From a virus: 64,000 nucleotides of DNA. Location of the stretch: positions 32,001 to 96,000 of the IMG/VR virus record IMGVR_UViG_3300025778_000010. One strand, written 5' to 3'. Of this stretch, positions 23,667-52,050 are shown piece by piece. The notes below the pieces were generated by a model, which had not been told where the DNA came from, searched no databases, and saw only the letters and a program-made list of their open reading frames with translations. Each line of letters opens with the position of its first letter. Position 1 is the stretch's first letter. Position numbers and translations under genes: made by a program.

Positions 23667-24218
23667 TTAATATCTTTCTAATGTAGTAGGATTTAAGTTC
23701 TTAATTTGGTCATTTGACCAACCAGTATAAATCATACCAGCTCGGGGAGCTTCTAATGTAATAACTCCATGTTTCCATCCTTCAGGAATATAGATTACAT
23801 CTCCTGGTTCCATAATATACTTAACTTCCTTGCCATTTTCTATAACTGTCCATAATGCTTTTCCTATGCAATTCCAGTGAATTTGCTTACCAGGATCAAC
23901 ATGCATAAAAAGTCCCGACCCATGCTCTGTTGTTTGAGAATAGATCATTACTGGTTCGTTCCAAAGATAGAGTCCAAAAGCTTTGAGCATTGCATCCTCA
24001 AATTCTTTAAACCCATTAAAGGCATAAAGCATAGGAAGCTTTTCTCCAGTGTAGTAAATTGTCAAAAATTCATTTTCTTTTCTAAGCTTACTTTTTGGTA
24101 CCATCTGACTGCTTTTTACAAAAGTTTCAAAATTAGGCACAACAGGAAAAGCGTTCTTAAAATGAACAACTTTGTCGTCTTCTAATCTTGCTTGTTTCAT
24201 TCTTTCTATAAAACTCAT
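23667..24218 (-). CDS. cupin/JmjC-like oxygenase
   Basis: HVD...PGDVIYIPEGWKHGV facial-triad pattern. Confidence 0.75.
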   Translation of the reverse strand: MSFIERMKQARLEDDKVVHFKNAFPVVPNFETFVKSSQMVPKSKLRKENEFLTIYYTGEKLPMLYAFNGFKEFEDAMLKAFGLYLWNEPVMIYSQTTEHGSGLFMHVDPGKQIHWNCIGKALWTVIENGKEVKYIMEPGDVIYIPEGWKHGVITLEAPRAGMIYTGWSNDQIKNLNPTTLERY

Positions 24219-24397
24219 ATGCTATATTGTAGCACATTTCCACCAATTTTTTACAATGTAACGTGTATCACACTAAATTAGATTTGATCAAAATGTTAAT
24301 GGATTTTTAAAATGCATGATTCACTTTTAAAAACAAAAAATCAAATTTGAATAGTGCGCCCGAAATGTCCAAATTGCCCTGGTATGTACCCTAAAGA

Positions 24398-24413
24398 TGT
24401 GGTCTATCTCACA
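24398..24413. promoter_or_regulatory. CRP/GlxR-type palindrome
   Basis: TGTGG-TCTATC-TCACA. Confidence 0.55.
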
Positions 24414-24454
24414 AAGTTTTTTTAAAAGATGTCCGATTTGTACGCATTTTGGAG

Positions 24455-24483
24455 TTGAAAATGTCAGTGGTGTGTGTTATAGT
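24455..24483 (+). promoter_or_regulatory. SigA promoter with PafBC-type element
   Basis: TTGAAA-17-TATAGT containing TGTCAG-N10-TATAGT. Confidence 0.8.
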
Positions 24484-24539
24484 TACACTATAAGAAATTA
24501 ACAAAGGTTGTTAGTTTAACTTAAAGAAAGGAAGTCAAA

Positions 24540-24764
24540 ATGACTTCACTAAATAACTACTATAATGAAATCCGTATGGATATTGCTAAAGATTTTGGTC
24601 TAGAGGCAGGTGGCTATGCTCCCCGCCCTAAGTTAATGCCTATCACTATCGCTCAGCGTATTAACGCTAAGTATCCTAGTGTAGATAATGGCTCTCGTTG
24701 GGGTCAGCCTAATCCAAAGGCTATCCTAATCGCTAAGCGTTATCACGCTCTGTTTGTGGCGTAA
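24540..24764 (+). CDS. hypothetical early protein
   Basis: AAAGGAAG RBS, first gene after promoter. Confidence 0.7.
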   Translation: MTSLNNYYNEIRMDIAKDFGLEAGGYAPRPKLMPITIAQRINAKYPSVDNGSRWGQPNPKAILIAKRYHALFVA

Positions 24765-24820
24765 GTCACAATCACGGCACGGCGTGTCGAGTTGATTTTG
24801 TCAGCCCTATCTGATAGACT
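24755..24820 (+). promoter_or_regulatory. composite promoter: CRP-type box, GACAC box, -35, PafBC-type element, extended -10
   Basis: TGTGG-N6-TCACA; CGGCGTGTCG; TTGATT-17-TAGACT with TGTCAG-N10-TAGACT. Confidence 0.8.
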
Positions 24821-24850
24821 TCCAGTCATACAAATTAAATAAAGAAAAAT

Positions 24851-24924
24851 CCTAGTTGAGCCTCTGAGCCTTAGCAAATAATCCGAAAGGTGAGCCTAAG
24901 CAAATAAGAGCAAATAACACTAGG
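24851..24924 (+). ncRNA. structured leader RNA with three identical internal loops
   Basis: Nested stems CCUAGU/ACUAGG, CUC/GAG, CUUAG/CUAAG and CC-GAAA-GG separated by UGAGC/CAAAUAA loops. Confidence 0.7.
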
Positions 24925-24975
24925 CAAGGAAAGATAGATAAAAGGTTTATCTATAAAAAAAGAAAGGTGACTAAT

Positions 24976-25122
24976 ATGTCATACTCATTCGATAATAATA
25001 ATAAAGACCGTTGGTCAGAACTAGCAGACAATTATCAATCAATGCTAGATGAACTAGCAGAATCAGAATCAGAATCTGTATTTATCCCCGTACCTGCGTT
25101 TGATGTAGACGAGGTGCTCTAA
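24976..25122 (+). CDS. small acidic early protein (48 aa)
   Basis: Read manually: MSYSFDNNNKDRWSELADNYQSMLDELAESESES...; GAAAGGTG RBS. Confidence 0.65.
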   Translation: MSYSFDNNNKDRWSELADNYQSMLDELAESESESVFIPVPAFDVDEVL

Positions 25123-25215
25123 TGACTATAAATAGTTTAACTCTCATTTCACTATTGCTAGTGTCGTACCTATCTGCTAAACTACTAACCGATAAAGAAT
25201 GGGGAAAGAATAAAA

Positions 25216-25422
25216 ATGAAAACTAAGATTATCGTACTAGGATTAGCACTCGCTCTAATTCCCGCCGTTGCTAACGCTCGTGGCACAAGCCATCATTCTT
25301 ATAGCCTGTCTAGTGTAGGTCGCTACACTTATCACTATCACAAGCCTAGCCATATCTATTGCCCATATCAAGGCTGTAAAAAATCGTTCTCTAGTTTCAC
25401 TAGCACTAGTGGCGGAAACTAA
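25216..25422 (+). CDS. small secreted His-rich protein
   Basis: Signal peptide (ANA-R), His/Tyr-rich, one Cys pair. Confidence 0.55.
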   Translation: MKTKIIVLGLALALIPAVANARGTSHHSYSLSSVGRYTYHYHKPSHIYCPYQGCKKSFSSFTSTSGGN

Positions 25423-25444
25423 TGTCAGTGGTCTATGGTAGACT
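25423..25444 (+). promoter_or_regulatory. PafBC-type promoter without canonical -35
   Basis: TGTCAG-N10-TAGACT. Confidence 0.7.
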
Positions 25445-25479
25445 ACTATTAACAACAACAAGAAAAGGAAAATAAATAA

Positions 25480-25644
25480 ATGACAATCGAAAATCGTACT
25501 TACCAAATCGGTGACCTATTCACCACACAACGCTCAAAGGTAACAGGAACAATTAAGGAAATTGTAAATGTAAAGCCTAACCAATCTCGTGTGAAGTTGG
25601 AAGTTGACGGCAAAGACCGCTGGACAACTGTCACAATCAAGTAA
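25480..25644 (+). CDS. small beta-barrel-like protein, paralog 1
   Basis: MTIENRTYQIGDLFTTQRSKVTG...; AAAGGA RBS. Confidence 0.75.
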   Translation: MTIENRTYQIGDLFTTQRSKVTGTIKEIVNVKPNQSRVKLEVDGKDRWTTVTIK

Positions 25645-25663
25645 AGTTTAGCAAATCGCTAAA

Positions 25664-25691
25664 CGACCTGAGCAAGTCGGAAAAAGGCTCA
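25664..25691 (+). ncRNA. H-type pseudoknot motif, copy 1
   Basis: CGAC-CUGAGCAA-GUCG...GCUCA; same architecture at 48342-48375. Confidence 0.5.
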
Positions 25692-25723
25692 ACTAATACC
25701 CAACAAAGAAAAGGAAAAAAAGA

Positions 25724-25894
25724 ATGACACTACACGGATACACTTATCAAATCGGAGATTTATTCACCACATCAAAGACAGGCGTAACTGGACGAATTAA
25801 CTCGTTCTCTCCTGTATCAAATAAAGTAACTCGTGTTGGTCTAACTTTAGCAAATGGCTCAAAGCGTATTGCTATGGTAAAGACAACGAAGTAA
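25724..25894 (+). CDS. small beta-barrel-like protein, paralog 2
   Basis: MTLHGYTYQIGDLFTTSKTGVTG...; AAAGGA RBS. Confidence 0.75.
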   Translation: MTLHGYTYQIGDLFTTSKTGVTGRINSFSPVSNKVTRVGLTLANGSKRIAMVKTTK

Positions 25895-25975
25895 AAATAA
25901 AATAAGTTTAGGCGGGACTGCACACTAATAACGACACTCCCGCCTAATTCACAAAACACGAAAGGAAAACTAATT

Positions 25976-26158
25976 ATGTCAATGTCACGCAAGGACTATG
26001 TTTCAACCGCTGAAATTATTAATTCTTATGCTTCAGAAATTAAACTCGAAGTGCTAGAAGATCTAGTAAATGATTTCATCGAAATGTTCGCATCAGATAA
26101 CGAGCGATTCAATAGCGATAGATTTTGGGACGAGTGTTTTAAAAACACAAATCACTAA
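25976..26158 (+). CDS. hypothetical early protein
   Basis: GAAAGGA RBS; MSRKDY...DNERFNSDRF. Confidence 0.75.
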   Translation: MSMSRKDYVSTAEIINSYASEIKLEVLEDLVNDFIEMFASDNERFNSDRFWDECFKNTNH

Positions 26159-26172
26159 ATAAAAATAAAAGC

Positions 26173-26205
26173 TTAGGCGTAGCAAAATTGCTACGCCTAA
26201 TTTTA
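26173..26205 (+). terminator. intrinsic terminator
   Basis: TTAGGCGTAGCAA-AA-TTGCTACGCCTAA followed by TTTT. Confidence 0.75.
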
Positions 26206-26314
26206 TTAAAAAATAAAAAAAAATAACGGCGTGTCGGCTTGACAAAGCCGAGCCGAGGGGCTGGCCCAAAAAATCGGACATTTACGGCATTTAAGACATT
26301 CGATATACACAGAT

Positions 26315-26335
26315 TTATCCACAAGCTGTGGATTA
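26315..26335. promoter_or_regulatory. inverted pair of DnaA-box-like sites
   Basis: TTATCCACA (perfect) and TGTGGATTA (1 mismatch). Confidence 0.5.
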
Positions 26336-26364
26336 TTGTTCATCTTAAATTAACCTAAAACTTA

Positions 26365-26404
26365 CGGCGTGTCGCTTGATTTTTTCGATTTTATCTGATA
26401 AACT
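26365..26404 (+). promoter_or_regulatory. GACAC-box promoter, diverged copy of the 24780 promoter
   Basis: CGGCGTGTCG; TTGATT-17-TAAACT. Confidence 0.7.
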
Positions 26405-26437
26405 TCCAGTTATAAAATTAAATAAAGATATAAAAAA

Positions 26438-26453
26438 TGTGATGTACTTCACA
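26438..26453. promoter_or_regulatory. perfect CRP/GlxR-type palindrome
   Basis: AAA-TGTGA-TGTACT-TCACA. Confidence 0.65.
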
Positions 26454-26562
26454 AAGTACACGCTCCAAATATTGAGACTACTCCCCAGTATACTCGATAG
26501 TAGCGAAAAAGTATGTTAAACTAGCGATAGTTAAACAGTTAAAAAAGAAAGGTGGTCATAAA

Positions 26563-26862
26563 ATGGCTACACTAGAAGTAAAAGTAAATGATAGTTTTGT
26601 TCCGCTTGAGTATGCTCCAAGCGATGTAAAGATTTCTCTTGAGTGGGCGTTAATGAATAATGCTCCAATGGTAGTAAAATCCACTACCCCCGCCGTTGTT
26701 CGTGTTTGCAAAGTTTGCGAATATGCACACGAAGGTTTGTATTGCACAAATTGTTTCACGGGTGAGCGTGTAAATTGCTCCCCTGCTGGCAAGTTTAATA
26801 AATGGTCAAAAGTGATGCGAATCACACCAACTACTTGCAACAAATCTCGGCGTGTCGCCTAG
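26563..26862 (+). CDS. Cys-rich hypothetical early protein
   Basis: GAAAGGTGG RBS; CKVC and CTNC. Confidence 0.65.
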   Translation: MATLEVKVNDSFVPLEYAPSDVKISLEWALMNNAPMVVKSTTPAVVRVCKVCEYAHEGLYCTNCFTGERVNCSPAGKFNKWSKVMRITPTTCNKSRRVA

Positions 26863-26888
26863 ATAATGTCAGTATAATCTGATATAAT
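26848..26888 (+). promoter_or_regulatory. GACAC-box plus PafBC-type promoter
   Basis: CGGCGTGTCG; TAGATA-17-TATAAT; TGTCAG-N10-TATAAT. Confidence 0.8.
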
Positions 26889-26922
26889 TCCAACTATCAA
26901 CAAAAAGAAAGGTGGCAACTTA

Positions 26923-27147
26923 ATGCTAATCTCAGAAGCCTTAGAAGGCAAATATGTAAAGTCCTCAAAAGGACAAGGCATAATCCAATATGCAGATTTC
27001 CGAAAGGATATGCACCACTCTACCCCTGAGGGTTATCTTGCTTATGCTTGCAAGGTTCGCCCTACTTATAACCCTGAAGTGCATAAGTTTATTCCAGAAG
27101 ATTTCTGGACAACAATTTATGTCGGATTGGATAGTGAATTACTATGA
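26923..27147 (+). CDS. hypothetical early protein
   Basis: GAAAGGTGG RBS. Confidence 0.7.
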   Translation: MLISEALEGKYVKSSKGQGIIQYADFRKDMHHSTPEGYLAYACKVRPTYNPEVHKFIPEDFWTTIYVGLDSELL

Positions 27148-27350
27148 CAATTAAAATTGGTGGGCTAGGGCAGACAATTTCTGCCTATTGCCCAGTATGC
27201 TCTCAAAAGATGACCCATATGTGTATCGCTACACTTGGAACGGGTAAAACAATTCGCTATGAGTGGCAATGCCAGCCTTGCGAATTATCTCTAAAGTCTG
27301 ACTCAACAGGCTATGCTCATCTACTCACAGAAATGGCTTACTATGTCTGA
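27144..27350 (+). CDS. zinc-ribbon hypothetical protein
   Basis: CPVC and CQPC; ATGA overlap. Confidence 0.65.
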   Translation: MTIKIGGLGQTISAYCPVCSQKMTHMCIATLGTGKTIRYEWQCQPCELSLKSDSTGYAHLLTEMAYYV

Positions 27351-27459
27351 TAAAATTTTCATATGTGATGAATGTGATACCCTTGCCACAATGTCAGTGC
27401 AAGGTGATACAATAACTATAAATAAATGTAAGTGCTTAACTTTAGAATGGAGCAACTAA
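27343..27459 (+). CDS. 38-aa Cys-rich protein with an embedded PafBC-type promoter
   Basis: MSDKIFICDECDTLATMSVQGDTITINKCKC...; TGTCAG-N10-TACAAT at 27392-27413. Confidence 0.5.
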   Translation: MSDKIFICDECDTLATMSVQGDTITINKCKCLTLEWSN

Positions 27460-27665
27460 TGTACAAAATTACAACAACCTATGACGGAAATCCCGTCCCA
27501 CACTCTATTCACTCTTATGCTGATGCACTTGATGCGTTTGACTCGTTTGGTCGTTGCACCGATTGGGGATTTGCAGATGAATATGCAACCTACAATTTAA
27601 CTTTACCTGATGGAAAAATGTACACAAAGATTTTTTATCGTAGCGGAAAAGTTGGTGGAAAGTAA
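27459..27665 (+). CDS. hypothetical early protein
   Basis: GGAG RBS, start MYKITT. Confidence 0.7.
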   Translation: MYKITTTYDGNPVPHSIHSYADALDAFDSFGRCTDWGFADEYATYNLTLPDGKMYTKIFYRSGKVGGK

Positions 27666-27962
27666 TGGCAACAACAATTCACCTTGGCGGAATAGAATCA
27701 GAATGTGAGAAGTGTCGTGAAATTGCGGGAGAAAATAATGAATAAAGTAAATCGTGTTCAAGAGTTGCGGAGATCAAATGCTGCAACTCCAATTCGTAAC
27801 AAGAAAAAATATACACGTAAAAATAAATATAAAAATAAATTTGAATAAATATTTATAACATTGCATAGCTATGCGACACGCCCGAGTGCGGCTGGCCCCT
27901 GTCAACTCGACACGCCGATTACGGGGTGTGATTTTAATCTCCCAAATACTGGCGGGTACAAC

Positions 27963-27991
27963 TAGATAATGTCAGTGGGTTCTGCTATACT
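27963..27991 (+). promoter_or_regulatory. PafBC-type promoter
   Basis: TAGATA-17-TATACT; TGTCAG-N10-TATACT. Confidence 0.8.
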
Positions 27992-28021
27992 TCCGATATC
28001 AAGAAAAGAAAGGGGCATTAA

Positions 28022-28249
28022 ATGTCTACTGTTGCCACATATTGCAAAGATTGCAATAAGCGTTTATCTGATATTTCAGTATATGACGCTCCCTATACTT
28101 CCGATTCTACTTGCTGGGAGTGTATCTTCAAGTCCTGCGATAACTGCTATGGTCAAGGAATTACTGGATGGGTATCTCCAGATGGTGATTTTGATTTTGA
28201 TTATTGCGAGTGCAACCCACTTTGCCTAACACTAGAAGAGGTCAAATAA
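28022..28249 (+). CDS. Cys-rich zinc-finger protein
   Basis: GAAAGGGG RBS; three CxxC and one CxC. Confidence 0.7.
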   Translation: MSTVATYCKDCNKRLSDISVYDAPYTSDSTCWECIFKSCDNCYGQGITGWVSPDGDFDFDYCECNPLCLTLEEVK

Positions 28250-28440
28250 TGACTAATGAAACTATTTTTGAAGTAGCCTGCCTATACTATGAAGTATGCG
28301 GTACAAGCGAAGTATTCTACTCTGAAGAAGAGTATGATATCTATGGCGATGATTATGTCTGCCCTGAGTGCTATTATCAGATGGCGGAAATGGAGTCTGA
28401 TTCCTTCCCGCTATCTTTAGAATATGATGAGGGGGAATAA
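28249..28440 (+). CDS. small acidic zinc-binding protein
   Basis: GAGG RBS, start MTNETI; D/E/Y-rich; CPEC. Confidence 0.65.
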   Translation: MTNETIFEVACLYYEVCGTSEVFYSEEEYDIYGDDYVCPECYYQMAEMESDSFPLSLEYDEGE

Positions 28441-28518
28441 TGTCTGACAAGTCTGCTCAAGATCTATTTAATGAAATGGATACCCTTTGGGATAATTTCA
28501 AGAAAGCCACATGGCAAA

Positions 28519-28540
28519 TGTCAGTGGTGCCTGCTACAAT
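28519..28540 (+). promoter_or_regulatory. PafBC-type promoter
   Basis: TGTCAG-N10-TACAAT. Confidence 0.75.
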
Positions 28541-28563
28541 AACATCCTTAACCCAACCAAAGA

Positions 28564-29049
28564 ATGGAAACTAACATGACAACAACCCTAACCCGTGGCG
28601 AAGCCAAAGATACAATTGATTTCGCAATTGAACAATTTATCAACGAGATTGAAGTCTCTGATGATATGCTATTAACGATTACCTATGCCGTAAATAATGA
28701 CTTGCAGATTCGTGATTACTTCCTTGGGCTCCCGTCCGATTATGGTATGCAGGTATGCGTTGATTTTGTCAACTATCTTTCACGAGTAACTAATGCACGA
28801 GAAGGATATGCATATGACACAATTTCTGCAATGTATCATATTGAACAAGGCAACACAGACTTGGCTAAGTCTCTGCTAGAAATTGCAGAAAAAAATAATC
28901 CTGATTATAATCTCATGAAACTTGCGAAGAGAATTCTTTCAGCAGGTTGGCCAGGTTCCGAATTAACTAGAATGCGTAATGAATTGCATTCTTCAGTTGT
29001 GGATACTATCACCGAAGAGCCAAATATTTTAATTGAAGAGGTGGCGTAA
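28564..29049 (+). CDS. helical hypothetical protein (DUF4192-like)
   Basis: DLQIRDYFLG...PDYNLMKL resembles the actinobacterial DUF4192 C-part. Confidence 0.5.
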   Translation: METNMTTTLTRGEAKDTIDFAIEQFINEIEVSDDMLLTITYAVNNDLQIRDYFLGLPSDYGMQVCVDFVNYLSRVTNAREGYAYDTISAMYHIEQGNTDLAKSLLEIAEKNNPDYNLMKLAKRILSAGWPGSELTRMRNELHSSVVDTITEEPNILIEEVA

Positions 29050-29207
29050 TGTCAGCACCATATGCAACAATTAACGGCGTTGAGGTTCATGAGGACCTCA
29101 ACGGCTATGCCGTGGTCATGAAGAATGGCAAGGTAATTAAAAAGTATACCAACTCAAGAGAAGACGCATTAGGCAAAGCAATGCACTATGCACAGGAGAT
29201 TAAATAA
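29049..29207 (+). CDS. hypothetical 52-aa protein
   Basis: Read manually: MSAPYATINGVEVHED...; GAGGTGG RBS. Confidence 0.6.
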   Translation: MSAPYATINGVEVHEDLNGYAVVMKNGKVIKKYTNSREDALGKAMHYAQEIK

Positions 29208-29423
29208 ATGGCAAAGCATCCACCAGTCAACAGTGCACAATGGCATTCTGTATTTGCAGATGATCAATGCAAAATTTATCAAGACGGTAACGATGATATT
29301 TTTTTCAAGGTCATGATCAAGGGCCAACGTGTTAAATATTTTTATAATGAAACAGCTCATAGCGACGTTGCACGTTACTGCAGCGACGAGCTTGGAATTA
29401 GCTATTGGTCCGTATTAAATTAA
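29208..29423 (+). CDS. hypothetical early protein
   Basis: AGGAG RBS. Confidence 0.7.
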   Translation: MAKHPPVNSAQWHSVFADDQCKIYQDGNDDIFFKVMIKGQRVKYFYNETAHSDVARYCSDELGISYWSVLN

Positions 29424-29684
29424 TTTAACTTGGGTGGGGAATAAAATGCAAGCGGTAGCATATGTATTGGTCTATGGATCTGCATTCGCTATCGCATGCA
29501 TTTTTTATTTTATATTTTCTAAAAAAGATTTTTAAATGCGGTGTGTCGAGTTGACAACCGTTGATTTTTGGGCTGGCCCGTCAAGCCGACACGCCGTTTA
29601 CGGGGCGTGATTTTAATCACATGGAATGGGCGGGGACAAAACGGACATATCAGACAAATCATTATTTAACTTAGGCTTTACGGG

Positions 29685-29714
29685 TAGACAGATGTCAGCC
29701 TTATCTGCTAGAAT
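29685..29714 (+). promoter_or_regulatory. PafBC-type promoter
   Basis: TAGACA-18-TAGAAT; TGTCAG-N10-TAGAAT. Confidence 0.8.
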
Positions 29715-29745
29715 AGGCATACATTAACAGAAAGAAGGAAAAAAT

Positions 29746-30786
29746 ATGACTAACCCAATGTCACAGGTTCATCGCTCAGAAGTTGAGGATGGTTCTGTAT
29801 CTCTTGCTGTATCACTTCGCACAAATCCTGCATGGCACTCTTTTGCTAACAAGGTATTTGCTAAGGATGAGCAAGTCACAACCGCACAAATGCTAGATGC
29901 TGCTAAACTCTCAAATTGGAATGTTTCTCTTGAGTCTGTTTCAGATTTATTGCCAGACAACTATGATTCTGTTAGCGAGAATTTTTTGGTTGTTCGTGAT
30001 AACCCTTACACAGCAGGACAAAAAGATGTTCTCTCAGTTGTAGGCTCACGCTATAAGGCTGTTCAGAATGAAGAACTCTTTTCTTTTGCAGATAACCTAC
30101 ATGATGGAAACCCTGATGTAAATTGGGAAAGTGCAGGTTCTCTAAAGAATGGTCGTGTTGTATTTGGCACAATGTCAATTCCCCGCACTATGGTTCTTGA
30201 CCCTAATGGTGCTAATGACACTACCAATCTTTATCTCGTAGTTTACACTTCACACGATGGTTCAGTTGCGGTTCAATCTGCAATTACCCCTGTTCGTGTT
30301 ATGTGTCAAAACACTCTTAATTTCGCTATGCGTAAGGCTAAGCAATCTTTCAAGATTCGCCACACTCAGACAGTAGATGGAAAAATTGCTGCTGCTCGTG
30401 AGACTCTAGGTCTAACTCTTGCGTACATGGATGAATTCGAAACACAAGCAAAAGAACTTTTCTCTCGTGAAGTGACAAATGCTAAGTTTAGCGAAATCAT
30501 TAACAAGATGTATCCTAAGCCAGAGGCAGATGTTAAGGGTTCAATCAAGAAGTGGGAAAACAAGGTTGTTCTGCTTGATGACCTTTACCATAACTCTCCT
30601 ACTAATGCTAATATCAAGGGTACAGCATGGGGCGTTGTAAATGCTCTAACCGAACGCCTTGATTACTATCGCACAGCCCGCAAGGGAAACAGCGATTCGC
30701 TAATGGCAGGTGCAAGCGGATTTGACCCTGTTATCACAGCAGAAAAAAATAAAATTGTTAAGCAGGTTCTTGCACTTACCGCTTAA
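29746..30786 (+). CDS. DUF932 family phage/plasmid protein
   Basis: PAWH, Y-x-x-VQN, ESAGSLKNGR, SHDGS, TPVRVMCQNTL, GTAWGVVNALTE. Confidence 0.85.
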   Translation: MTNPMSQVHRSEVEDGSVSLAVSLRTNPAWHSFANKVFAKDEQVTTAQMLDAAKLSNWNVSLESVSDLLPDNYDSVSENFLVVRDNPYTAGQKDVLSVVGSRYKAVQNEELFSFADNLHDGNPDVNWESAGSLKNGRVVFGTMSIPRTMVLDPNGANDTTNLYLVVYTSHDGSVAVQSAITPVRVMCQNTLNFAMRKAKQSFKIRHTQTVDGKIAAARETLGLTLAYMDEFETQAKELFSREVTNAKFSEIINKMYPKPEADVKGSIKKWENKVVLLDDLYHNSPTNANIKGTAWGVVNALTERLDYYRTARKGNSDSLMAGASGFDPVITAEKNKIVKQVLALTA

Positions 30787-30792
30787 TAAATT

Positions 30793-30814
30793 GTGAGGGG
30801 CGAAAGCCCCTCAC
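30793..30814 (+). terminator. GC-rich hairpin with GAAA loop (terminator or processing site)
   Basis: GTGAGGGGC-GAAA-GCCCCTCAC. Confidence 0.6.
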
Positions 30815-30821
30815 CTCTCTT

Positions 30822-30895
30822 GATTCCATAGATCAATTGGTTAGATCGCTACCCTGTCACGGTAGAGGTTGCGGGTTCAAGTCCCGTTGGAATCG
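30822..30895 (+). tRNA. tRNA-Asp(GTC)
   Basis: Cloverleaf; anticodon arm CTACC-CTGTCAC-GGTAG; no encoded CCA. Confidence 0.93.
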
Positions 30896-31045
30896 CAAAG
30901 TTTAAATGGTCATCACGGCGTGTCGAGTTGACAAAACAGCTGGGGCGGGCTGGCCCCATAAAATCCATAATGTCAAGTCTTTACGGATGTGATTATAAAC
31001 ACATTTACGGATGACCGATATGTCCGATTTGTCTGCGTGTCTAAA

Positions 31046-31074
31046 TTGATTACTCATGGGTAACTTGCTATAAT
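31046..31074 (+). promoter_or_regulatory. SigA promoter, near-leaderless
   Basis: TTGATT-17-TATAAT with TG extension; ATG 8 nt downstream. Confidence 0.7.
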
Positions 31075-31082
31075 ACTCACCT

Positions 31083-31724
31083 ATGGAAAATGTAAAAGAA
31101 ACTTGGTTCAAATGGGATTATGTATGCCCAAATTGCGATGCACATATTGAGATGACTATTAAATCTAATGGTCATCCACATAGCGAGATTTGTTCTAAAT
31201 GCTATGAGCGTCTAACTCTGATGTCAGTGGTAGATGCTACAATATACCCAACTCAAAAGAAAGAAGAACAAACTATGGAAACAACAATCGCTGAACTTTA
31301 TAACCCAAATATGTTGGTTACATATAAGAAGATTACTGATGGTAATACTGAATATATTACTGATAAGGTAACTGATATTGAGTGGGCTCTTGCTCAATCC
31401 CGCCGTAACTATGAGAGCCTTACAGAGCAACAAAATAATTGGTATCTCAAAGAGTCAAAACTACGCACTTTGCTAAATGATGTATTTCACGATTCAGAAG
31501 ACCAAGACACACTTGAAAAAATTGCTGATATTTTTGATGTTCCACTAACTAAGGAAATCGAAGTAACCGCTTGGGTCAATGTCAATATGACTATCGAAGT
31601 TGATATGCGTGAAGGCGAATATGATGTTGAAGACCTTGTTCGCAATAATCTCACAGTAGATGCCTATGGTGGAGAAATCACAGTTCACGACTTTGATGTA
31701 GACCGAGTAGAGGAGCAATACTAA
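31083..31724 (+). CDS. hypothetical protein: N-terminal Zn ribbon and likely second in-frame start at 31275
   Basis: CPNC and CSKC; internal TGTCAG-N10-TACAAT at 31222-31243 before METT. Confidence 0.7.
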   Translation: MENVKETWFKWDYVCPNCDAHIEMTIKSNGHPHSEICSKCYERLTLMSVVDATIYPTQKKEEQTMETTIAELYNPNMLVTYKKITDGNTEYITDKVTDIEWALAQSRRNYESLTEQQNNWYLKESKLRTLLNDVFHDSEDQDTLEKIADIFDVPLTKEIEVTAWVNVNMTIEVDMREGEYDVEDLVRNNLTVDAYGGEITVHDFDVDRVEEQY

Positions 31725-31996
31725 TGGCAGTAGCAGTTATTGAAGTCCCGTCCCCTGCTCGTATGGCGAACGGGATTAGCAAATGCCTAACCGCTGGAAT
31801 TGAATATGAGATGCTGGGTGGGATGCAGGTAGAGATTACTTGTGCTGATGAGATGAAGTTAGCTAGAATAATTACAGCCTTTGGCGGTAAAATCCTAAGT
31901 GCTTTTAATCATAAACCAATCACACCAGATGCCCCTAAGCACGAAGTCCAATATGCTAGGACACATAGACCAATTCAGACACGCCGAAAGAATTGA
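31724..31996 (+). CDS. hypothetical protein
   Basis: GAGGAG RBS, TAATG overlap. Confidence 0.65.
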   Translation: MAVAVIEVPSPARMANGISKCLTAGIEYEMLGGMQVEITCADEMKLARIITAFGGKILSAFNHKPITPDAPKHEVQYARTHRPIQTRRKN

Positions 31997-32022
31997 CATA
32001 AGCACCCCGCTTGTGTTAGAAT
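31978..32022 (+). promoter_or_regulatory. GACAC box plus SigA promoter
   Basis: GACACGCCG; TTGACA-18-TAGAAT. Confidence 0.7.
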
Positions 32023-32061
32023 ACAACCTCAACCCCTAACAAAGAAAAGGAAAACCCAACA

Positions 32062-32478
32062 ATGGCAAAAGCAATCTCAGTTAAAGTAGCAACACCAAAG
32101 GTAATCGCCGCTTTGGAAACAAAGTTGGAAACAATAAAAACAACTAAGGCAAATGAAAAGCAATTAGAGGCTGCTTTCCAAGAAGAACTAAAGGCTTGGA
32201 ATAAGGCTTTGTTTGATTATGCTCTATCAAAGTTTGACTCTGCTACAAATATCCGCACCAATTATCGTAGTTGGTCAAACTCTCTTAACATTGACTTTGA
32301 TGTTGATACACAAGGCAAGGATTTTCCTGCTCAACCTACTCGTCAATTTGAGCAACTTCACGACCACAACTATCGTGAAATTGTTGATGAAATTGAGAAC
32401 GCAATTCGTATTCTCAAAATGACAGATGAGGAAACAGTTAATGCTTCCACATTTAAGTCAATCGCACAGTATCTCTAA
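32062..32478 (+). CDS. hypothetical early protein
   Basis: AAAAGGA RBS; 138 aa. Confidence 0.75.
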   Translation: MAKAISVKVATPKVIAALETKLETIKTTKANEKQLEAAFQEELKAWNKALFDYALSKFDSATNIRTNYRSWSNSLNIDFDVDTQGKDFPAQPTRQFEQLHDHNYREIVDEIENAIRILKMTDEETVNASTFKSIAQYL

Positions 32479-32607
32479 TTAGTTAATCACTTGGGAGGGA
32501 AGTCTTGACTTCCCTCCCCTTATCTGATAGGATACGCAAATGGCAATCATATTTTTATTAGGCACAATTTTTGTAATCGCAGTAATAGCACTAGGAGGAA
32601 TACTATA

Positions 32608-32976
32608 ATGGGAGCACGAGTTAATTTTGTTTTCAAGACCGAGGAAGACAAGCCAAAGATTGTTTTGTATAGTCATTGGGGAGAATACTCATGGCGTGAA
32701 GATTTGGCTAATGCCTTAGATAAGGCAACACCTAGATTAAAAATGGGTGATAGTTCATATGCTCTCCGTATTATCATTGACCAACTAACAAAAGAAGGTC
32801 GGGATGAAGAAACAGGCTTCGGTCTTTATATTGCGGATGAAGACCAAATGTATTGGGATACCACAGTTGAAGTAGACCTTACAACTCAACAGGTAAATGA
32901 TGAAGGAAACTGGCATTCATTTTCATCATTCATTGAATATCAAGGTGAGGTGTTAGAGTATCATGTTGGGGTATAA
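32608..32976 (+). CDS. hypothetical phage protein
   Basis: AGGAGG RBS; MGAR...LYSHWG motif. Confidence 0.75.
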   Translation: MGARVNFVFKTEEDKPKIVLYSHWGEYSWREDLANALDKATPRLKMGDSSYALRIIIDQLTKEGRDEETGFGLYIADEDQMYWDTTVEVDLTTQQVNDEGNWHSFSSFIEYQGEVLEYHVGV

Positions 32977-33140
32977 ATTAGAGGATTTGAATAAGATGAT
33001 TGATGCTACTTATTTAGCTTTAAATTATCTTCCCCCCGCACAAACAGATCTTGCAGATAATCTAGCCAAAGCAAATGATTTTCTCCAGGGTCTTTGGGCA
33101 GAGGGCTACTTTGAGTAGCCTGAGCCTGACCAGTAATTTG

Positions 33141-33215
33141 GACATTTACGACATTACGGACATTACGGAGGATCGCTTGAACACATTTACGAGGGGCTTG
33201 ACAAAACCTTTTACG
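33141..33215 (+). repeat. CATT(T)ACG direct-repeat cluster
   Basis: GACATTTAC-GACATTACG-GACATTACG, then ACATTTACG and TTTTACG. Confidence 0.65.
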
Positions 33216-33233
33216 ATAGGATAAAATAGGGCT

Positions 33234-33419
33234 ATGAAAGAATACGAGATACTAGCAACCCAATCAATTTACCTATCAAAGAAGGTAATGGCTGAAACAG
33301 AGGCAGAAGCAAATGCTATTGCTGCAAACACACCAGTAGATGAGTGGACAACTGATTCTACTGAATTAATTATTGATTTCCTACGCACAGAACCTGTGCA
33401 GTTACGACTTGACATCTGA
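33234..33419 (+). CDS. leaderless hypothetical protein
   Basis: TTGACA-18-TAAAAT at 33198-33227; ATG 6 nt later. Confidence 0.7.
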   Translation: MKEYEILATQSIYLSKKVMAETEAEANAIAANTPVDEWTTDSTELIIDFLRTEPVQLRLDI

Positions 33420-33472
33420 TATCTTGATGTAGTAGAATACCCATACTGACCAACTAGTAGAAAGAATGACAA

Positions 33473-34195
33473 ATGCCAAACTGGGTGTATAACGGATTAA
33501 CCATTGAAGGTAGTCCTGAATCTGTAGATAAACTTGTATCTCAACTTAATCAACCATTTACTGTGATGCACGAAACATGGGATATTTCTACCAATTCTTT
33601 TATTAAGAAAAATACTCTTTATTCAAACCCTGTTTTTGCATTTTGGAATATAGTTAAACCAACAGACATGGATGCATATTATGGTCCAAGTCCAAAAGTT
33701 GATTTAAATAAGCCTATTAGATTTGATTCAAATCATTGGTACGACTGGAATGTGCGTAACTGGGGAACAAAATGGGATGTAGCCATATCTGTAACTGAAA
33801 GCCATCCAGAAACATATATGGAAGGCCCTATTAATAACGGTGATAATAAAGTAGTTTATTATAACTTTAATACTGCTTGGAGTTATCCTGAGCCTGCTAT
33901 TAAGAATCTTTCTTTACAGTTCTCCGACCTTTTATTTACGTTAGGCTACGAAGAAGAAACAGGCTGGGGTGGCGAAGCAGAATTCCTTAGAGGCGAAATA
34001 ATTAGTCATAATCAATATGACTACAAATGTAAAGACTGTGAATATGCAACTAGTGATGCATTAGAGTTTTGCGAAGACTGCTCAGATTATCCTTGTCCGC
34101 AATGTGGTTGGGCGAGTGCAGTTGACGAATGCCCTGTCCATAGTGTAGAATACGACCAGAAACAAACCCAACTACAGGAGGCAAATAATGTCTGA
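33473..34195 (+). CDS. DUF1281/YubB ferredoxin-like domain protein
   Basis: MPNW, WYDWNVRNWGTKWD, FNTAWS, Cys-rich tail; promoter TTGACA-18-TAGAAT at 33409-33438. Confidence 0.75.
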   Translation: MPNWVYNGLTIEGSPESVDKLVSQLNQPFTVMHETWDISTNSFIKKNTLYSNPVFAFWNIVKPTDMDAYYGPSPKVDLNKPIRFDSNHWYDWNVRNWGTKWDVAISVTESHPETYMEGPINNGDNKVVYYNFNTAWSYPEPAIKNLSLQFSDLLFTLGYEEETGWGGEAEFLRGEIISHNQYDYKCKDCEYATSDALEFCEDCSDYPCPQCGWASAVDECPVHSVEYDQKQTQLQEANNV

Positions 34196-34448
34196 CCAAT
34201 TAACTTTAGACCCATATCTACAACGTATGGTTGAAGCAGGTATGGACGGTGCGGATATCATGCACGGTCATCTTAAGGTCCTAATGGCACGTGCAGAGAG
34301 TGCATTAGCAGACGCCATAGAGGACGAAGAGGCTTCGGGTGAGGCCATGGATAGCATGGAGCGACGGTACTGGGAGGGTGTGGAAGAAGCATACTCAGAA
34401 CTGTATAAATTAACTTATGCTATTGCATTTGCAAAGGCGGGTAAGTAA
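34188..34448 (+). CDS. hypothetical protein
   Basis: AGGAGG RBS. Confidence 0.7.
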   Translation: MSDQLTLDPYLQRMVEAGMDGADIMHGHLKVLMARAESALADAIEDEEASGEAMDSMERRYWEGVEEAYSELYKLTYAIAFAKAGK

Positions 34449-34572
34449 TGAAGACTTATCGTATCACTTTTATCTGTGATGAAAAATGGTTAGAAGCCAT
34501 TAATAAATTTACAGATGTAGATGTATATGACAACGAAATATTATACATAGAGCACTTTGAGGAGATCAACTA

Positions 34573-34887
34573 ATGTCATCATCAATGTTTGTACAAACCA
34601 ATTCATATCTAGATAATCTAAAATGGGAGTTTCCTAATCATGCCCCGTTGGTCCTATTGTACATGTGGGACATCACCCGTGATGTCTTTCAAGATATTGA
34701 ATTATCTGACGGGGATTCTTCTTGGGGAGAACTTATCCCAGTTCCTGGAACTACTTTAGAGGATGTATGGAATAAGTTTATTAAAGATCCTTGGGGCGGA
34801 TTTGACGTAGAAGAATATGATGTAGTACAATGGTTGTCCCGTGAAGACTTTATCCAAGACTATGAGGGCGAGGAAGTAGATGAATAA
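34573..34887 (+). CDS. acidic hypothetical protein
   Basis: GAGGAG RBS; D/E/W-rich. Confidence 0.7.
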   Translation: MSSSMFVQTNSYLDNLKWEFPNHAPLVLLYMWDITRDVFQDIELSDGDSSWGELIPVPGTTLEDVWNKFIKDPWGGFDVEEYDVVQWLSREDFIQDYEGEEVDE

Positions 34888-35176
34888 ACTAGAAGAGCGT
34901 ACATATAAAAAGCTTGTAGAAGGCCTTGGACACAACGATGTCTCACCTGCAGCAATGGCAAGACATATGTTAAATGAATCTCGTTATGTTAACGAATCGT
35001 TCATCCAATTGTTTACAAACTACATAATCCAAATGGGCACCGCACATACGGTCCCACTATATCTAAAAGAATCACACGATTTGTGCAAGTACATGCTTAC
35101 CACCCTGCAGGAGTTGGGCCTAATGGGAGAATATGGAAGAATGGAACTTGACACAAACGAATACCTGTCGGTATAA
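34880..35176 (+). CDS. hypothetical protein
   Basis: Overlapping ORF, last gene of plus-strand island. Confidence 0.7.
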   Translation: MNKLEERTYKKLVEGLGHNDVSPAAMARHMLNESRYVNESFIQLFTNYIIQMGTAHTVPLYLKESHDLCKYMLTTLQELGLMGEYGRMELDTNEYLSV

Positions 35177-35182
35177 TAGGTA

Positions 35183-35271
35183 TTCGAACAAAATCCTAGC
35201 GTTCAGGTGTCAGCCAAGTTAGGTATACAAGGGCAGTTCACGAGTCATTCCGTGAACTGCCTTTCTCTTTT
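35183..35271 (+). ncRNA. candidate ~90-nt sRNA
   Basis: TTGACA-18-TATAAT (35148-35177) followed by an ORF-less stretch ending in a terminator. Confidence 0.5.
35232..35271 (+). terminator. intrinsic terminator
   Basis: GGCAGTTCACG-N8-CGTGAACTGCC-TTTCTCTTTT. Confidence 0.85.
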
Positions 35272-35296
35272 CCCAGAGCCAGAGATCTAAAAACCC

Positions 35297-35820
35297 AGAC
35301 ATTACGAAGGGGCTTAAAATTCACGGGGAGTTTGCTGGTTTAAACTAACACATTAATAAAAATATATCAAAGCCAGTATAAGAAATATACCAGACATTAC
35401 GAAGGCATATACGGTAACATTTGTCAAGAGATATCTGTGTGATCTTGATCATATATTTATATAAAATGTATAATAAAATAAAAACATTACGATTTCGATC
35501 AAAATTCACACGATATTCTATACATTTAGATCAAAATTGTCTAATATTATATCAAAATTGTCAAAAATGTGTGCAAAATCACCCATATTTTTATGTGATA
35601 TATATCATATCGCACGGATTTGACATTACGAAGGGCATTATGGTATGCTCTATAACTTGATACAATCTATCTATATATACTAACTGAGTTTATTTAACAT
35701 AATACTGTGTATATTCTCCACTTTGCTCCACAATGCTCCACATATAGCCCATAAAAAGGGCGGAAACGAGCGTTAGCGAGTCTACTTTATATAGCCAGAT
35801 AGCAACCTATAGCCCTATAG
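35297..35820. repeat. non-coding AT-rich convergence zone with several short direct-repeat families
   Basis: ACATTACGA x4, ATCAAAATT x3, CTCCAC x3 at 10-bp period, ATAGCC x3. Confidence 0.65.
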
Positions 35821-36152
35821 ATTAAATTTCTTTCCATATCTATTCTGCTCTAATCTCATCCATGCCTTGACCATATTGTTGATATCATGATCCTTCTGGA
35901 TAATAGATGCTCCATCTGGAAATGTGATCTTACATGATTCTTGGTCATATTGTTCTATCTTGATATTCTTCTTACCCATTATATTATCCTTATCTATTAT
36001 AGCTATTATAGGCACGTATTTGGACGAGATCCTTTAGGGATTCCCGCCTAATTTTCTCCTACTTTTCCGCTCATTTTACTTCGTATATTTGACCACAATA
36101 ATCGCACTTCATTTGCTGTGCAACTAGTGTCCATTTATGCTTACATTCTTCT

Positions 36153-36644
36153 TTATTCTTCAAAATTCTCCATAGATTCAAATAGGTCTGGTTGATTATC
36201 TATATCCAGTGTAGTCTTAATTGATCTTTCTTCTGCTGGAAATACATTATTGGCAATCCCCGCCCATTGTGAAGATTCATATTGAATTGGCATGGCATTG
36301 CGAAGGGCAGAATTTTCCGTCTTTAATGCCTTAACCTGAGCTTTTAAGGCCTGATTATCCACATCTAGGATTTCGTTGATCTCCAACTGATAATGTATGG
36401 CACTATGCTCTGATTCATAGGCATTTTCATATAAACCTGCCTTATCCTCTGCTTTTCTCGCTAGATCGTTATATTGACTGGCAAGTTCAGATACATTACA
36501 ATATGCGTTATATGTCTCAATAAAATCTTCTTCTAACTCTTTATAATCTATATTTAATTTGGTAACCTTATCTTCATAATAGTATAATAAACCTATTGTA
36601 AATAAGGCTTCAAATCCCATTGTTGTAAGTATTAAGGCTATCAC
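36153..36644 (-). CDS. membrane-anchored coiled-coil protein
   Basis: N-terminal hydrophobic helix followed by heptads. Confidence 0.6.
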   Translation of the reverse strand: MIALILTTMGFEALFTIGLLYYYEDKVTKLNIDYKELEEDFIETYNAYCNVSELASQYNDLARKAEDKAGLYENAYESEHSAIHYQLEINEILDVDNQALKAQVKALKTENSALRNAMPIQYESSQWAGIANNVFPAEERSIKTTLDIDNQPDLFESMENFEE

Positions 36645-44315: not shown

Positions 44316-44559
44316 CAGTGTATTTCATCCCTTCTATTTCGCATGGAGTCCCAAATGCTTGAATTAATTCACGAACATGAAGTAAGTATTCCATGATCTG
44401 CATTCTTTGACTTTCGTTGTATTCCATAACATTACTTTCATAAACAGTTAAAGCAAGGTAGTTTGGTCTTGCTCTGACATCTAATATAAGATTTTTAACA
44501 GGACATTTAATTGCCCTAATCCTTTTAGCCATTTCAACTGTGTAAGATATTTTTGCCAT
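44281..44559 (-). CDS. hypothetical protein
   Basis: Coupled ORF. Confidence 0.65.
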   Translation of the reverse strand: MAKISYTVEMAKRIRAIKCPVKNLILDVRARPNYLALTVYESNVMEYNESQRMQIMEYLLHVRELIQAFGTPCEIEGMKYTDEQARARRGQR

Positions 44560-44860
44560 GAATTTTCTTTAACTGACTCCATATTTCTGGGTCTTTGTGT
44601 GAGTTATTTTGTTTATCTATACGACCTAAGTCCATAAAAATACCGCCTCGTACACCAAACTCTTTATTTGCTACACCTTCTTTATGACATTGTTTAATTA
44701 CTGGACAATGTAAACAAACTTGATCAATTTGTTTGGCAAGCTCTTTATCTGATTCATAATCATCATAAAACCAATTAATTGACATATTTGTGCATGCTGC
44801 AAGGTGATACCATTTGATATCAACTTCATCAATTCCTAAATGACTAAATAAACCTGGCAT
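44534..44860 (-). CDS. whiB: WhiB family Fe-S transcription factor
   Basis: W...AAC...VCLHCPVIKQC...FGVRGG (four Cys plus a GVWGG-like turn). Confidence 0.85.
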   Translation of the reverse strand: MPGLFSHLGIDEVDIKWYHLAACTNMSINWFYDDYESDKELAKQIDQVCLHCPVIKQCHKEGVANKEFGVRGGIFMDLGRIDKQNNSHKDPEIWSQLKKIHGKNILHS

Positions 44861-47307: not shown

Positions 47308-47351
47308 TTCCTCATAACCTATTATACCTTATTTATTATTTATTACTTACG

Positions 47352-47424
47352 TGCCCTTGGCAGGAATCGAACCTGCGACGCAGACCTTAGAAGAGTCTCG
47401 CTCTATCCCCTGAGCTACAAAGGC
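47352..47424 (-). tRNA. tRNA-Arg(TCT)
   Basis: Cloverleaf; AGACT-CTTCTAA-GGTCT. Confidence 0.92.
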
Positions 47425-47425
47425 G

Positions 47426-47498
47426 TACCCCAAGACAGATTCGAACTGTCGCTGTATGGATTTTAAGTCCACTATCTCTACCGCTGGATTACTGGGGC
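47426..47498 (-). tRNA. tRNA-Leu(TAA), short variable loop
   Basis: Cloverleaf; GTGGA-CTTAAAA-TCCAT; 5-nt variable region. Confidence 0.85.
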
Positions 47499-47572
47499 AA
47501 ATAGAAAAGGACCTATTTCTAGATCCTTTTGTAACATTTTTACGAAAGAAAAGAGATGAAAGACCTTTGTAG

Positions 47573-48043
47573 TTACATTATAGTAGGCTTTAAAGTGCTT
47601 GTCAACTGCCATTGCCAGAATTTGTGTGCTTCTTGTCTTCCTGCAATAAAATTACAAATACCTTGCTCATCTAATTCATTTGCTACATCATATGTATGTT
47701 TAAGTTGGTCCATAACAATAATGTTTGTGTTAACTAATTCTTGAAGCATTTCACGAGCATTAAGATCAATTGAATCATTAATTTCTAATTCAGGGCTTAA
47801 TTCTGTCCATGACTTTAATCCAAATGGAGCTTTTGCACCCAGCTTACGAATATTTTCTGCAATAGGATCAATTGACTCATATAAATCTTCATAAATCTTT
47901 AAGAAAAACTTATGATATTGTGGAAAGTTTGATCCTTCTACATTCCAATGATAACCGTGGGCTTGCACATAATGCTTAACCACCATTGATTTTAAAATTT
48001 TTAGTTCTTTAATTAAATCTTCATTAGTTGCCATGATTTCCAT
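47573..48043 (-). CDS. dps: Dps / ferritin-like DNA-protection protein
   Basis: HGYHWNVEG..F..YH..F...D.IAE.IR. Confidence 0.9.
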   Translation of the reverse strand: MEIMATNEDLIKELKILKSMVVKHYVQAHGYHWNVEGSNFPQYHKFFLKIYEDLYESIDPIAENIRKLGAKAPFGLKSWTELSPELEINDSIDLNAREMLQELVNTNIIVMDQLKHTYDVANELDEQGICNFIAGRQEAHKFWQWQLTSTLKPTIM

Positions 48044-48320
48044 CCTTTTTATGTAATTCTGCTACCATATCCAACAAAATATCAGCGTCTGGTTTTTCTT
48101 TGTCATTATCTGTATACAAAGCTTTCAAAGTCTTTTCATCTTCTTTTCTTTGTGATCCCTCGCCCATCATAATAAGCAACATTGCAACTGGAATAAATAA
48201 TCCAATTGGAAAACTTGCCCACATGTGCGATACATTAAGAATTATTGCTGACATATATCCAGACATTCTGGCTGGGTACTTGTCTACATAAAAAGATATA
48301 TGGTTAATGACTTTTTTCAT
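48024..48320 (-). CDS. small membrane protein, leaderless
   Basis: Two hydrophobic segments; TATAAT 7 nt before ATG. Confidence 0.6.
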   Translation of the reverse strand: MKKVINHISFYVDKYPARMSGYMSAIILNVSHMWASFPIGLFIPVAMLLIMMGEGSQRKEDEKTLKALYTDNDKEKPDADILLDMVAELHKKDGNHGN

Positions 48321-48341
48321 ATATCTAATTATACATTAATA

Positions 48342-48375
48342 TGAGCAGTTTTGAAAAGGACATGCTCAGGTCCTT
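48342..48375 (-). ncRNA. H-type pseudoknot motif, copy 2
   Basis: AAGGAC-CUGAGCAU-GUCCUU-UUCAAAAC-UGCUCA (6 bp + 6 bp). Confidence 0.6.
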
Positions 48376-48422
48376 ACCCTGCGACTCCCCGATGAAAGGG
48401 TGCAGTGATTATTATTATATCA

Positions 48423-48881: not shown

Positions 48882-48957
48882 TATTACTTGCTCCTTTTCA
48901 GCGAGTTAGTTAGATTTTTGAACCCCCAAAGGCAGTTCATATATATTATATCAGATT

Positions 48958-49848: not shown

Positions 49849-49855
49849 TTTTATC

Positions 49856-50353: not shown

Positions 50354-50354
50354 A

Positions 50355-51141: not shown

Positions 51142-51165
51142 AATAGTTTAATTATACATTGTTTG

Positions 51166-51236
51166 AGCGAATAGCGGGAATTGAACCCGCACATTAACCT
51201 TGGCAAGGTTACGCACTACCACTATGCAATATTCGC
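51166..51236 (-). tRNA. tRNA-Gly(GCC)
   Basis: Cloverleaf; TAACC-TTGCCAA-GGTTA. Confidence 0.92.
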
Positions 51237-51243
51237 AAATAGG

Positions 51244-51358: not shown

Positions 51359-51361
51359 TTG

Positions 51362-51432: not shown

Positions 51433-51439
51433 AAAGTTA

Positions 51440-52027: not shown

Positions 52028-52050
52028 TGTTTATCCTTTGTTAGTAGTTG

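Follow-up and report, generated by a model that had tools for sequence, protein, structure and literature searches.

Which protein reads a short, GC-rich word that a freshwater phage repeats through one block of its genome? The question arises in IMG/VR virus record IMGVR_UViG_3300025778_000010, of which we analyzed a stretch of 64,000 nucleotides (bases 32001-96000 of the 108,356-bp record; 36% G+C), referred to here as the window and used for all coordinates unless another genome is named. The word is a 10-mer, CGGCGTGTCG (reverse complement CGACACGCCG), which contains the pentamer GACAC and recurs among small open reading frames (ORFs) on the plus strand. The original prediction held that about eleven such boxes, most of them set just upstream of -35 elements, are sites for WhiA, a cell-division regulator of Actinobacteria, which would act on phage promoters together with a host or phage WhiB protein. 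From the sequence comparisons described below, we consider it rather likely that the box is a host WhiA site and that a family of freshwater phages uses it to control early promoters.

Number, clustering and identity of the box

A search of the window with CGACACGCCG, allowing at most one mismatch, returned 10 matches (starting at 24780, 26227, 26365, 26848, 27874, 27908, 29539, 29587, 30916, and 31977), whereas shuffled sequences averaged 0.18 matches and never gave more than 3. Together with an eleventh site that retains eight of the ten letters, these matches bear out the predicted number of boxes, and the predicted positions were also right, except that the last box starts at 31977 and not at 31978 and that the partial site occupies 31033-31042. 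Seven of the eleven sites match the 10-mer in full, three match at nine positions and one at eight; GACAC is intact in all eleven, and all five substitutions among the four variant boxes of the window fall outside it. The 8-mer core GGCGTGTC has nine exact copies in the whole genome (108,356 bp), every one of them between window positions 24781 and 31985, and a stretch of 7.2 kb holds all box sites of the 108-kb genome. By itself, the pentamer GACAC is not enriched, with 77 copies compared with ~130 expected from our own base-composition estimate.

The box followed by any two bases and TTGAC (box-NN-TTGAC) occurs in at least 119 IMG/VR contigs; among the matches listed, the G+C content of most contigs is 34-41%, and lengths of 100-116 kb and copy numbers of two to four are both common. 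In each of five near-complete relatives, GGCGTGTCG recurs 3-9 times in a cluster that spans a few kb; the control gave zero matches, and all five encode a WhiB protein. Taken together, the shuffles, the clustering within the genome, and the zero control matches in relatives rule out chance or base composition as the source of the boxes. Five cultured actinophages (Evy, Gilson, Trina, Mufasa8, and Zemanar) carry 0-2 copies each with no enrichment, which indicates that the trait belongs to this freshwater phage family, and a megablast search of the region against cultured phages gave no match. Co-occurrence of the motif with whiB, which had been suggested as a check across actinophages, was seen in the near-complete relatives and did not extend to these cultured phages. 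In the Streptomyces phage Evy (BE cluster), a single copy of the 9-mer stands in each terminal repeat (4134-4142 and 125863-125871 of that genome), where it adjoins an Lsr2-like gene and lacks the clustering of the freshwater family.

As for the identity of the word, chromatin immunoprecipitation sequencing (ChIP-seq) of Mycobacterium tuberculosis WhiA and in vitro IDAP-seq with the purified protein both yield GACACGCC (PMC13473873, 2026); the same paper quotes CGACACGCCGn as the top WhiA motif of an earlier large M. tuberculosis ChIP-seq study, and cGACACGc as the motif from a one-hybrid screen in M. smegmatis. The phage box agrees with CGACACGCCGn at 10 of 10 letters. The sigma-A promoters at which WhiA acts with WhiB (WhiB2), namely sepX of Streptomyces venezuelae (PMC10243135) and dnaE1, dnaB, and ftsZ of M. 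tuberculosis (PMC13473873), share with the phage the word GACAC, extended to GACACGCC or CGACACGCCG, as well as a box upstream of the -35 in either orientation, restriction to Actinobacteria, and the presence of a WhiB-family protein. Unlike those promoters, the sites described here are borne by a phage, number eleven within 7 kb, and in over half of the cases come without a promoter. A literature search on the 10-mer itself returned only primers, and one on WhiA and bacteriophage promoters found no description of WhiA boxes on phage promoters.

Position of the box at promoters

Most boxes had been predicted to lie 1-2 nt upstream of a -35-like hexamer, and this gap was found at eight sites, six of them on the plus strand (24780, 26227, 26365, 26848, 29539, and 30916) and two when read on the minus strand (27908 and 29587). 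The other three depart from the prediction, the gap being 3 nt at 31033 and 6 nt at 31977, with no hexamer adjacent to 27874. A -10 hexamer follows at 17-18 nt for only five of the eleven sites (24780, 26365, 26848, 31033, and 31977).

Four of these five are of an inverted type, in which GTGTC on the coding strand stands 1-3 nt before TTGATT or TAGATA, followed by a 17-nt spacer and TAGACT, TAAACT, or TATAAT. The box at 24780-24789 (minus strand, where it reads CGACACGCCG) lies 2 nt before the -35 TTGATT at 24792-24797, with the -10 TAGACT at 24815-24820 and the centre of GACAC at about -41. The box at 26365-26374 (minus strand) lies 1 nt before TTGATT at 26376-26381, with TAAACT at 26399-26404, while that at 26848-26857 (minus strand), which overlaps the 3' end of the ORF at 26563-26862, lies 2 nt before the -35-like TAGATA at 26860-26865, with TATAAT at 26883-26888. 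The fourth is the degenerate box CTGCGTGTCT at 31033-31042 (minus strand; 8/10, GACAC intact), 3 nt before TTGATT at 31046-31051 and upstream of TATAAT at 31069-31074. The fifth site, the forward-type box AGACACGCCG at 31977-31986 (plus strand), has the opposite orientation and stands 6 nt before a TTGACA-N18-TAGAAT promoter (-35 at 31993-31998, -10 at 32017-32022), with the centre of GACAC at about -49.

Also present in the block that holds the boxes is a set of related sigma-70-type promoters whose spacer contains TGTCAG(TGG) and whose -10 is extended (TGTCAG-N10-TAnnnT). The genome has 13 matches to this pattern, nine of them in the block, where all lie on the plus strand within 24455-31246, with promoter starts at 24462, 24799, 25423, 26867, 27392, 27970, 28519, 29693, and 31222. 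These promoters resemble the PafBC-dependent RecA-NDp motif of mycobacteria (tTGTCRgtg-N8-TAnnnT). A WhiA peak in M. tuberculosis lies 42 bp upstream of recA P1, the LexA-independent promoter, and recA P1 and the phage are alike in pairing a box near -42 with a TGTCAG-type promoter.

Spacing and geometry in the relatives were drawn from ~455 unique box sites. In 172 of 183 cases, the gap between the box and a following TTGA[CT] is exactly 2 nt; on the other side of the box TTGA[CT] never occurs at 0-3 nt, and it lies within 12 nt in only 6 of the 455 sites. Among 10-mers anchored 2 nt upstream of TTGA[CT], agreement with the box is bimodal, with 167 perfect copies and 41 having 7-9 matches, set apart from a background that peaks at 2. 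Promoters of the relatives were scanned as T[GT]TC[AGC][GAT]-N10-TAnnnT (TGTCRG-type), positions being counted from a -10 whose first T is taken as -12. Inverted boxes lie at an offset of 8-10 from the promoter word (52 sites, 36 of them at exactly 9), which puts the centre of GACAC at -41, and forward boxes at an offset of 16-17 (58 sites, 51 of them at exactly 16), which puts it at -51. The two centres are 10 bp apart, or one helical turn, which places both on one face of the helix. No helical phasing with promoters was seen for those forward boxes of the window that lie far upstream, with GACAC at about -87, -121, and -131.

Host WhiA as the probable reader

The helix-turn-helix (HTH) domain at the C-terminus of WhiA reads GACAC in the way that sigma region 4 reads the GACA of TTGACA, and the orientation and spacing of WhiA sites differ between targets owing to a long linker (PMC10243135). 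The inverted arrangement, GTGTCG-NN-TTGAC, contains TGTC-N5-GACA; because both domains read the same GACA core, this arrangement may place the WhiA HTH head to head with sigma region 4, the two occupying neighbouring major grooves. In the mechanism that we propose, host WhiA would bind the box in the control regions of the early block and, at the five promoters of the window, would sit beside sigma-A region 4 and modulate initiation. The effect would most probably be activation jointly with a WhiB-type protein, either the host WhiB2 orthologue or the phage WhiB, and the output of the early genes would then track the state of the WhiA/WhiB switch of the host. Neither a WhiA HTH nor a sigma region 4 domain was found in the phage, and a Pfam search of 25 early ORFs gave no DNA-binding domain, which makes a host protein the simplest candidate for the factor.

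Class II activator sites, at which the regulator touches sigma region 4, include that of lambda cI at PRM and those of CRP and FNR at -41.5. The phage box is like them in being centred at about -42.5 and in abutting the -35 at a fixed distance. Unlike the sites of those dimeric activators, it is asymmetric and only 10 bp long, which suggests a monomeric HTH, and the reader proposed here is the sigma-4-like domain of WhiA.

A freshwater metagenome-assembled genome (MAG) labelled Aquiluna (1.9 Mb), found via a mis-binned phage contig, has the perfect 10-mer four times, once ~40 nt upstream of the rapZ-whiA operon and once 3 nt from the DnaA-box-like TGTGGATAA, upstream of a MerR-type regulator pair beside an FHA gene. 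Of 41 genomes from the order to which this MAG belongs, 40 have the WhiA HTH, and the box upstream of the whiA operon lends modest, post-hoc support to WhiA as the reader. A search for the host through the phage ribonucleotide reductase was set aside, having returned mostly phage contigs mis-binned into unrelated MAGs; close relatives of the enzyme (55-86% identity) lie on contigs, probably mis-binned phage, in MAGs labelled cyanobacterium, Saccharibacteria, Bacteroidia, Brevundimonas, and others. An excess of the 10-mer in a high-GC Solirubrobacter genome (218 compared with 74 for the control) was likewise discarded as uninformative, many of the inspected sites being coding repeats (Asp-Thr-Pro codons).

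Several observations weigh against control by host WhiA. The inverted-type promoters are near consensus in sequence, TTGACT, TTGATA, or TTGATT being separated by a 17-nt spacer from TAnnnT. Whereas the -35 of sepX is weak, elements like these do not obviously need an activator, and repression is possible. In the commonest phage arrangement, GACAC is on the template strand, 3 nt from this near-consensus -35, whereas at sepX the motif is on the non-template strand, upstream of the DNA contacted by WhiB (PMC10243135). At -39 to -43, the GACAC of the phage overlaps the stretch touched by WhiB in the solved complex at sepX, so that the phage complex must differ, or WhiA may act without WhiB or as a repressor. 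The assignment of the boxes to WhiA gains from a 10-mer that equals the mycobacterial consensus throughout and from the two phased positions in relatives, but the 3-nt distance to the -35 departs from the solved geometry. Furthermore, six of the eleven boxes stand away from promoters, having either TTGACA without a -10 or no hexamer; the claim that WhiA boxes control promoters throughout was not upheld, since only five flank a usable promoter and six lie in promoter-less modules. Among 38 genomes in the order of the Aquiluna-labelled MAG, only 4 have a box where one would be expected, upstream of the whiA operon (3 of them perfect). The lack of enrichment in the five cultured actinophages means that the link between box and whiB is not general, and the ratio of 167 perfect boxes to 41 variants is a fidelity above that usual for sites of host factors, which a dedicated phage factor would also fit.

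The whiB gene itself was correctly predicted at 44534-44860 (minus strand; 108 aa), where the product matches Pfam Whib with an E of 4e-9, above the curated cut-off. Compared with PDB sequences, the phage WhiB is only weakly similar to every solved WhiB-like type (E 1e-3 to 0.1), a comparison that did not assign it to a subfamily, and in the Atlas it falls in viral WhiB clusters. The gene lies 12.5 kb from the boxes, on the opposite strand, and has no box of its own; the suggestion that the phage WhiB acts at the boxes found no support in this analysis.

The dedicated factor mentioned above would be a regulator encoded by the phage, perhaps a small unannotated early or middle protein that shuts off or times the early promoters, with the likeness to WhiA sites a matter of coincidence or mimicry; we judge this unlikely. 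Its attraction is that the sites are near-perfect, numerous, and limited to one regulon, as the operators of phage repressors are, that the inverted-type promoters look strong unaided, and that many early ORFs have no known function. However, a 10/10 match to a host-factor motif determined independently is improbable by chance, domain searches of the phage gave no HTH, sigma region 4, or WhiA-like match, and two orientation-dependent positions 10 bp apart suit a factor that faces RNA polymerase. The stoperators of cluster A mycobacteriophages (the gp71 sites of L5) are spread genome-wide and are read by the repressor of a temperate phage. They resemble the boxes described here in comprising many asymmetric sites of 10-14 bp with an orientation bias and with one class overlapping an early promoter. 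Unlike stoperators, the boxes form one block, all within 7.2 kb, and no repressor was found, the 25 early ORFs offering no DNA-binding domain; among the genes scanned there was also no marker of a temperate lifestyle.

Few regulatory genes of actinobacterial phages are as common as those for WhiB, yet little is known of their targets. A phage regulon that bears the exact WhiA consensus provides a concrete, testable set of promoters for host WhiA, host WhiB2, and phage WhiB and, if host WhiA does read the box, the phage would be reading the cell-cycle switch of its host. The phage family is common in lakes, and such coupling, if true, could therefore affect the timing of lysis of freshwater Actinobacteria.

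Promoter-less modules and genomic setting

The six boxes without a promoter form four composite modules (26227, 27874/27908, 29539/29587, and 30916), each 45-130 nt upstream of the next promoter and 1.4-1.7 kb from the next module. Every module combines box-NN-TTGACA, lacking a -10, with the words TTACGG and CGGACAT and a polar word, GGCTGGCC. The polar word has four copies in the 108-kb genome (26259, 27890, 29571, and 30948), one per module, and is always on the plus strand, independent of the orientation of the neighbouring box. The modules lie between transcription units, which they may punctuate.

In the first module, the box at 26227-26236 (minus strand) is followed by gc, TTGACA, 13 bases, and GGGCTGGCCC, and forms a plus-strand hairpin with a z of -2.8. 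The second holds the variant box CGACACGCCC at 27874-27883 (plus strand), which has no adjacent -35 and lies upstream of the promoter at 27963, and the box at 27908-27917 (plus strand), after which, on the minus strand, come ag and TTGACA but no -10, and which lies 45 nt upstream of the plus-strand promoter at 27963-27991. The third is a large palindrome (29539-29596) that folds with a z of -4.1: its left arm is the variant box CGGTGTGTCG at 29539-29548 (minus strand, GACAC intact), followed by ag, TTGACA, 13 bases, and GGGCTGGCCC, and its right arm is the box at 29587-29596 (plus strand), beyond which lies a CRP-like palindrome at 29606-29621. The fourth box, at 30916-30925 (minus strand), is directly 3' of tRNA-Asp (30822-30896) and is again followed by ag, TTGACA, 13 bases, and GGGCTGGCCC. 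In all three plus-strand modules, therefore, exactly 13 unrelated bases separate TTGACA from GGGCTGGCCC, and TGGCCC occupies the position of a -10; the two minus-strand modules of the window lack this arrangement.

Modules of this kind recall the promoter-early stem-loop (PeSL) cassettes of T4-type phages, in which a repeated intergenic stem-loop accompanies a strong sigma-70-type early promoter amid small non-essential ORFs (PMC2839356). The boxes could accordingly belong to mobile regulatory cassettes that punctuate small early genes and shuffle them by recombination, the box being kept as the 5' arm of a hairpin and not as a word read by a protein, an explanation to which we give a low probability and which can coexist with WhiA binding. 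In the relatives, 101 unique box-NN-TTGACA elements form a hairpin with the box as the 5' arm, the NN positions covary (GC/GC, AT/AT, CC/GG, AC/GT, and AG/CT), and the top strand is the more stable in 94 of the 101 (-15.7 compared with -11.0 kcal/mol). The modules of the window lie between transcription units amid small orphan ORFs, as PeSLs do, and two of the four fold significantly. In the relatives, both the promoter-linked and the hairpin class are oriented like the downstream genes. Pairing leaves the invariant 10-mer unexplained, since the arms could covary as freely as NN does, and it accounts neither for the invariant TTGACA in the loop nor for boxes at promoters that lack a complementary arm. 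Moreover, canonical terminators already precede two of the modules (26173-26200 and 30793-30814), and two of the four modules fold no better than shuffled sequences. PeSLs carry no word of a host transcription factor, whereas in the phage the WhiA box and a -35 hexamer are parts of the stem-loop, which often lacks a U-tract and lies beside CRP-like, DnaA-box-like, and other repeated words.

That the box-TTGACA modules are decoy promoters that cannot melt, holding WhiA, WhiB, and the sigma-A holoenzyme closed so that replicated copies drain WhiA from host division genes, is the least likely of these explanations: it draws on the TGGCCC that stands exactly at the -10 position in all three plus-strand modules and on the confinement of GGCTGGCC to modules and to the plus strand, but the two minus-strand modules do not share the spacing, and relatives do not keep it either, having instead GCTGGCCC ~7 nt after TTGACA, where it pairs with the box.

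Returning to host WhiA, a wider reading of its role can be drawn, which we put forward only as an outside chance. The family might wire its whole early hyperplastic block to the WhiA/WhiB switch through perfect boxes at two phased positions, with CRP-like and PafBC-type elements added to sense cell-cycle, metabolic, and DNA-damage state; the promoter-less modules would serve as non-melting sinks for WhiA and sigma region 4 that switch off host division on replicating phage DNA, and the phage WhiB would replace WhiB2.

The block itself comprises ~30 small ORFs on the plus strand (24540-36040) between minus-strand blocks, and probably represents the early, or hyperplastic, region. One minus-strand flank encodes virion proteins, ribonucleotide reductase, and a glycosyltransferase, and the other encodes tRNAs, whiB, terminase, exonuclease, recombinase, and DNA polymerase. 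The sole clear domain match among the early ORFs scanned is DUF932, at 29746-30786. Its nearest matches are proteins from phages of Streptomyces, Mycobacterium, Arthrobacter, and Microbacterium, with Streptomyces phages providing the nearest cultured relatives (53% identity). An Rfam search of 24000-36500 matched tRNA alone and gave no RNA family for the box region. The tRNA-Asp at 30822-30896 is the only tRNA gene within the plus-strand early block, five further tRNAs lying on the minus strand (47351-52397). Half or more of the sampled words of the stretch were present in 17 freshwater metagenome runs, and no RNA run was listed as containing it.

Other repeated words lie near the boxes. The terminator at 26173-26200, just before the first module, has a perfect 12-bp stem with T-runs on both sides, as in a bidirectional intrinsic terminator. 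The word AA(T/A)CGGACAT and its complement are repeated in the modules (24429, 26272, 29639, and 31020), and relatives have a second kind of box hairpin in which this word is the 3' arm (TGTCGATTTG / CAAATCGGACA). DnaA-box-like words occur in the window at 26315-26335 as TTATCCACA-AGC-TGTGGATTA, and many relatives have arrays of the DnaA-box-like GTTATCCACAGG directly 3' of their box modules. Palindromes like those of CRP/GlxR (TGTGA-N6-TCACA and near variants) occur in the window at 24398, 24755, 26438, and 29606, and in the relatives such a palindrome, with its centre near -65, precedes the box by ~10 nt, so that the upstream region has three parts in the order palindrome, WhiA box, and -35.

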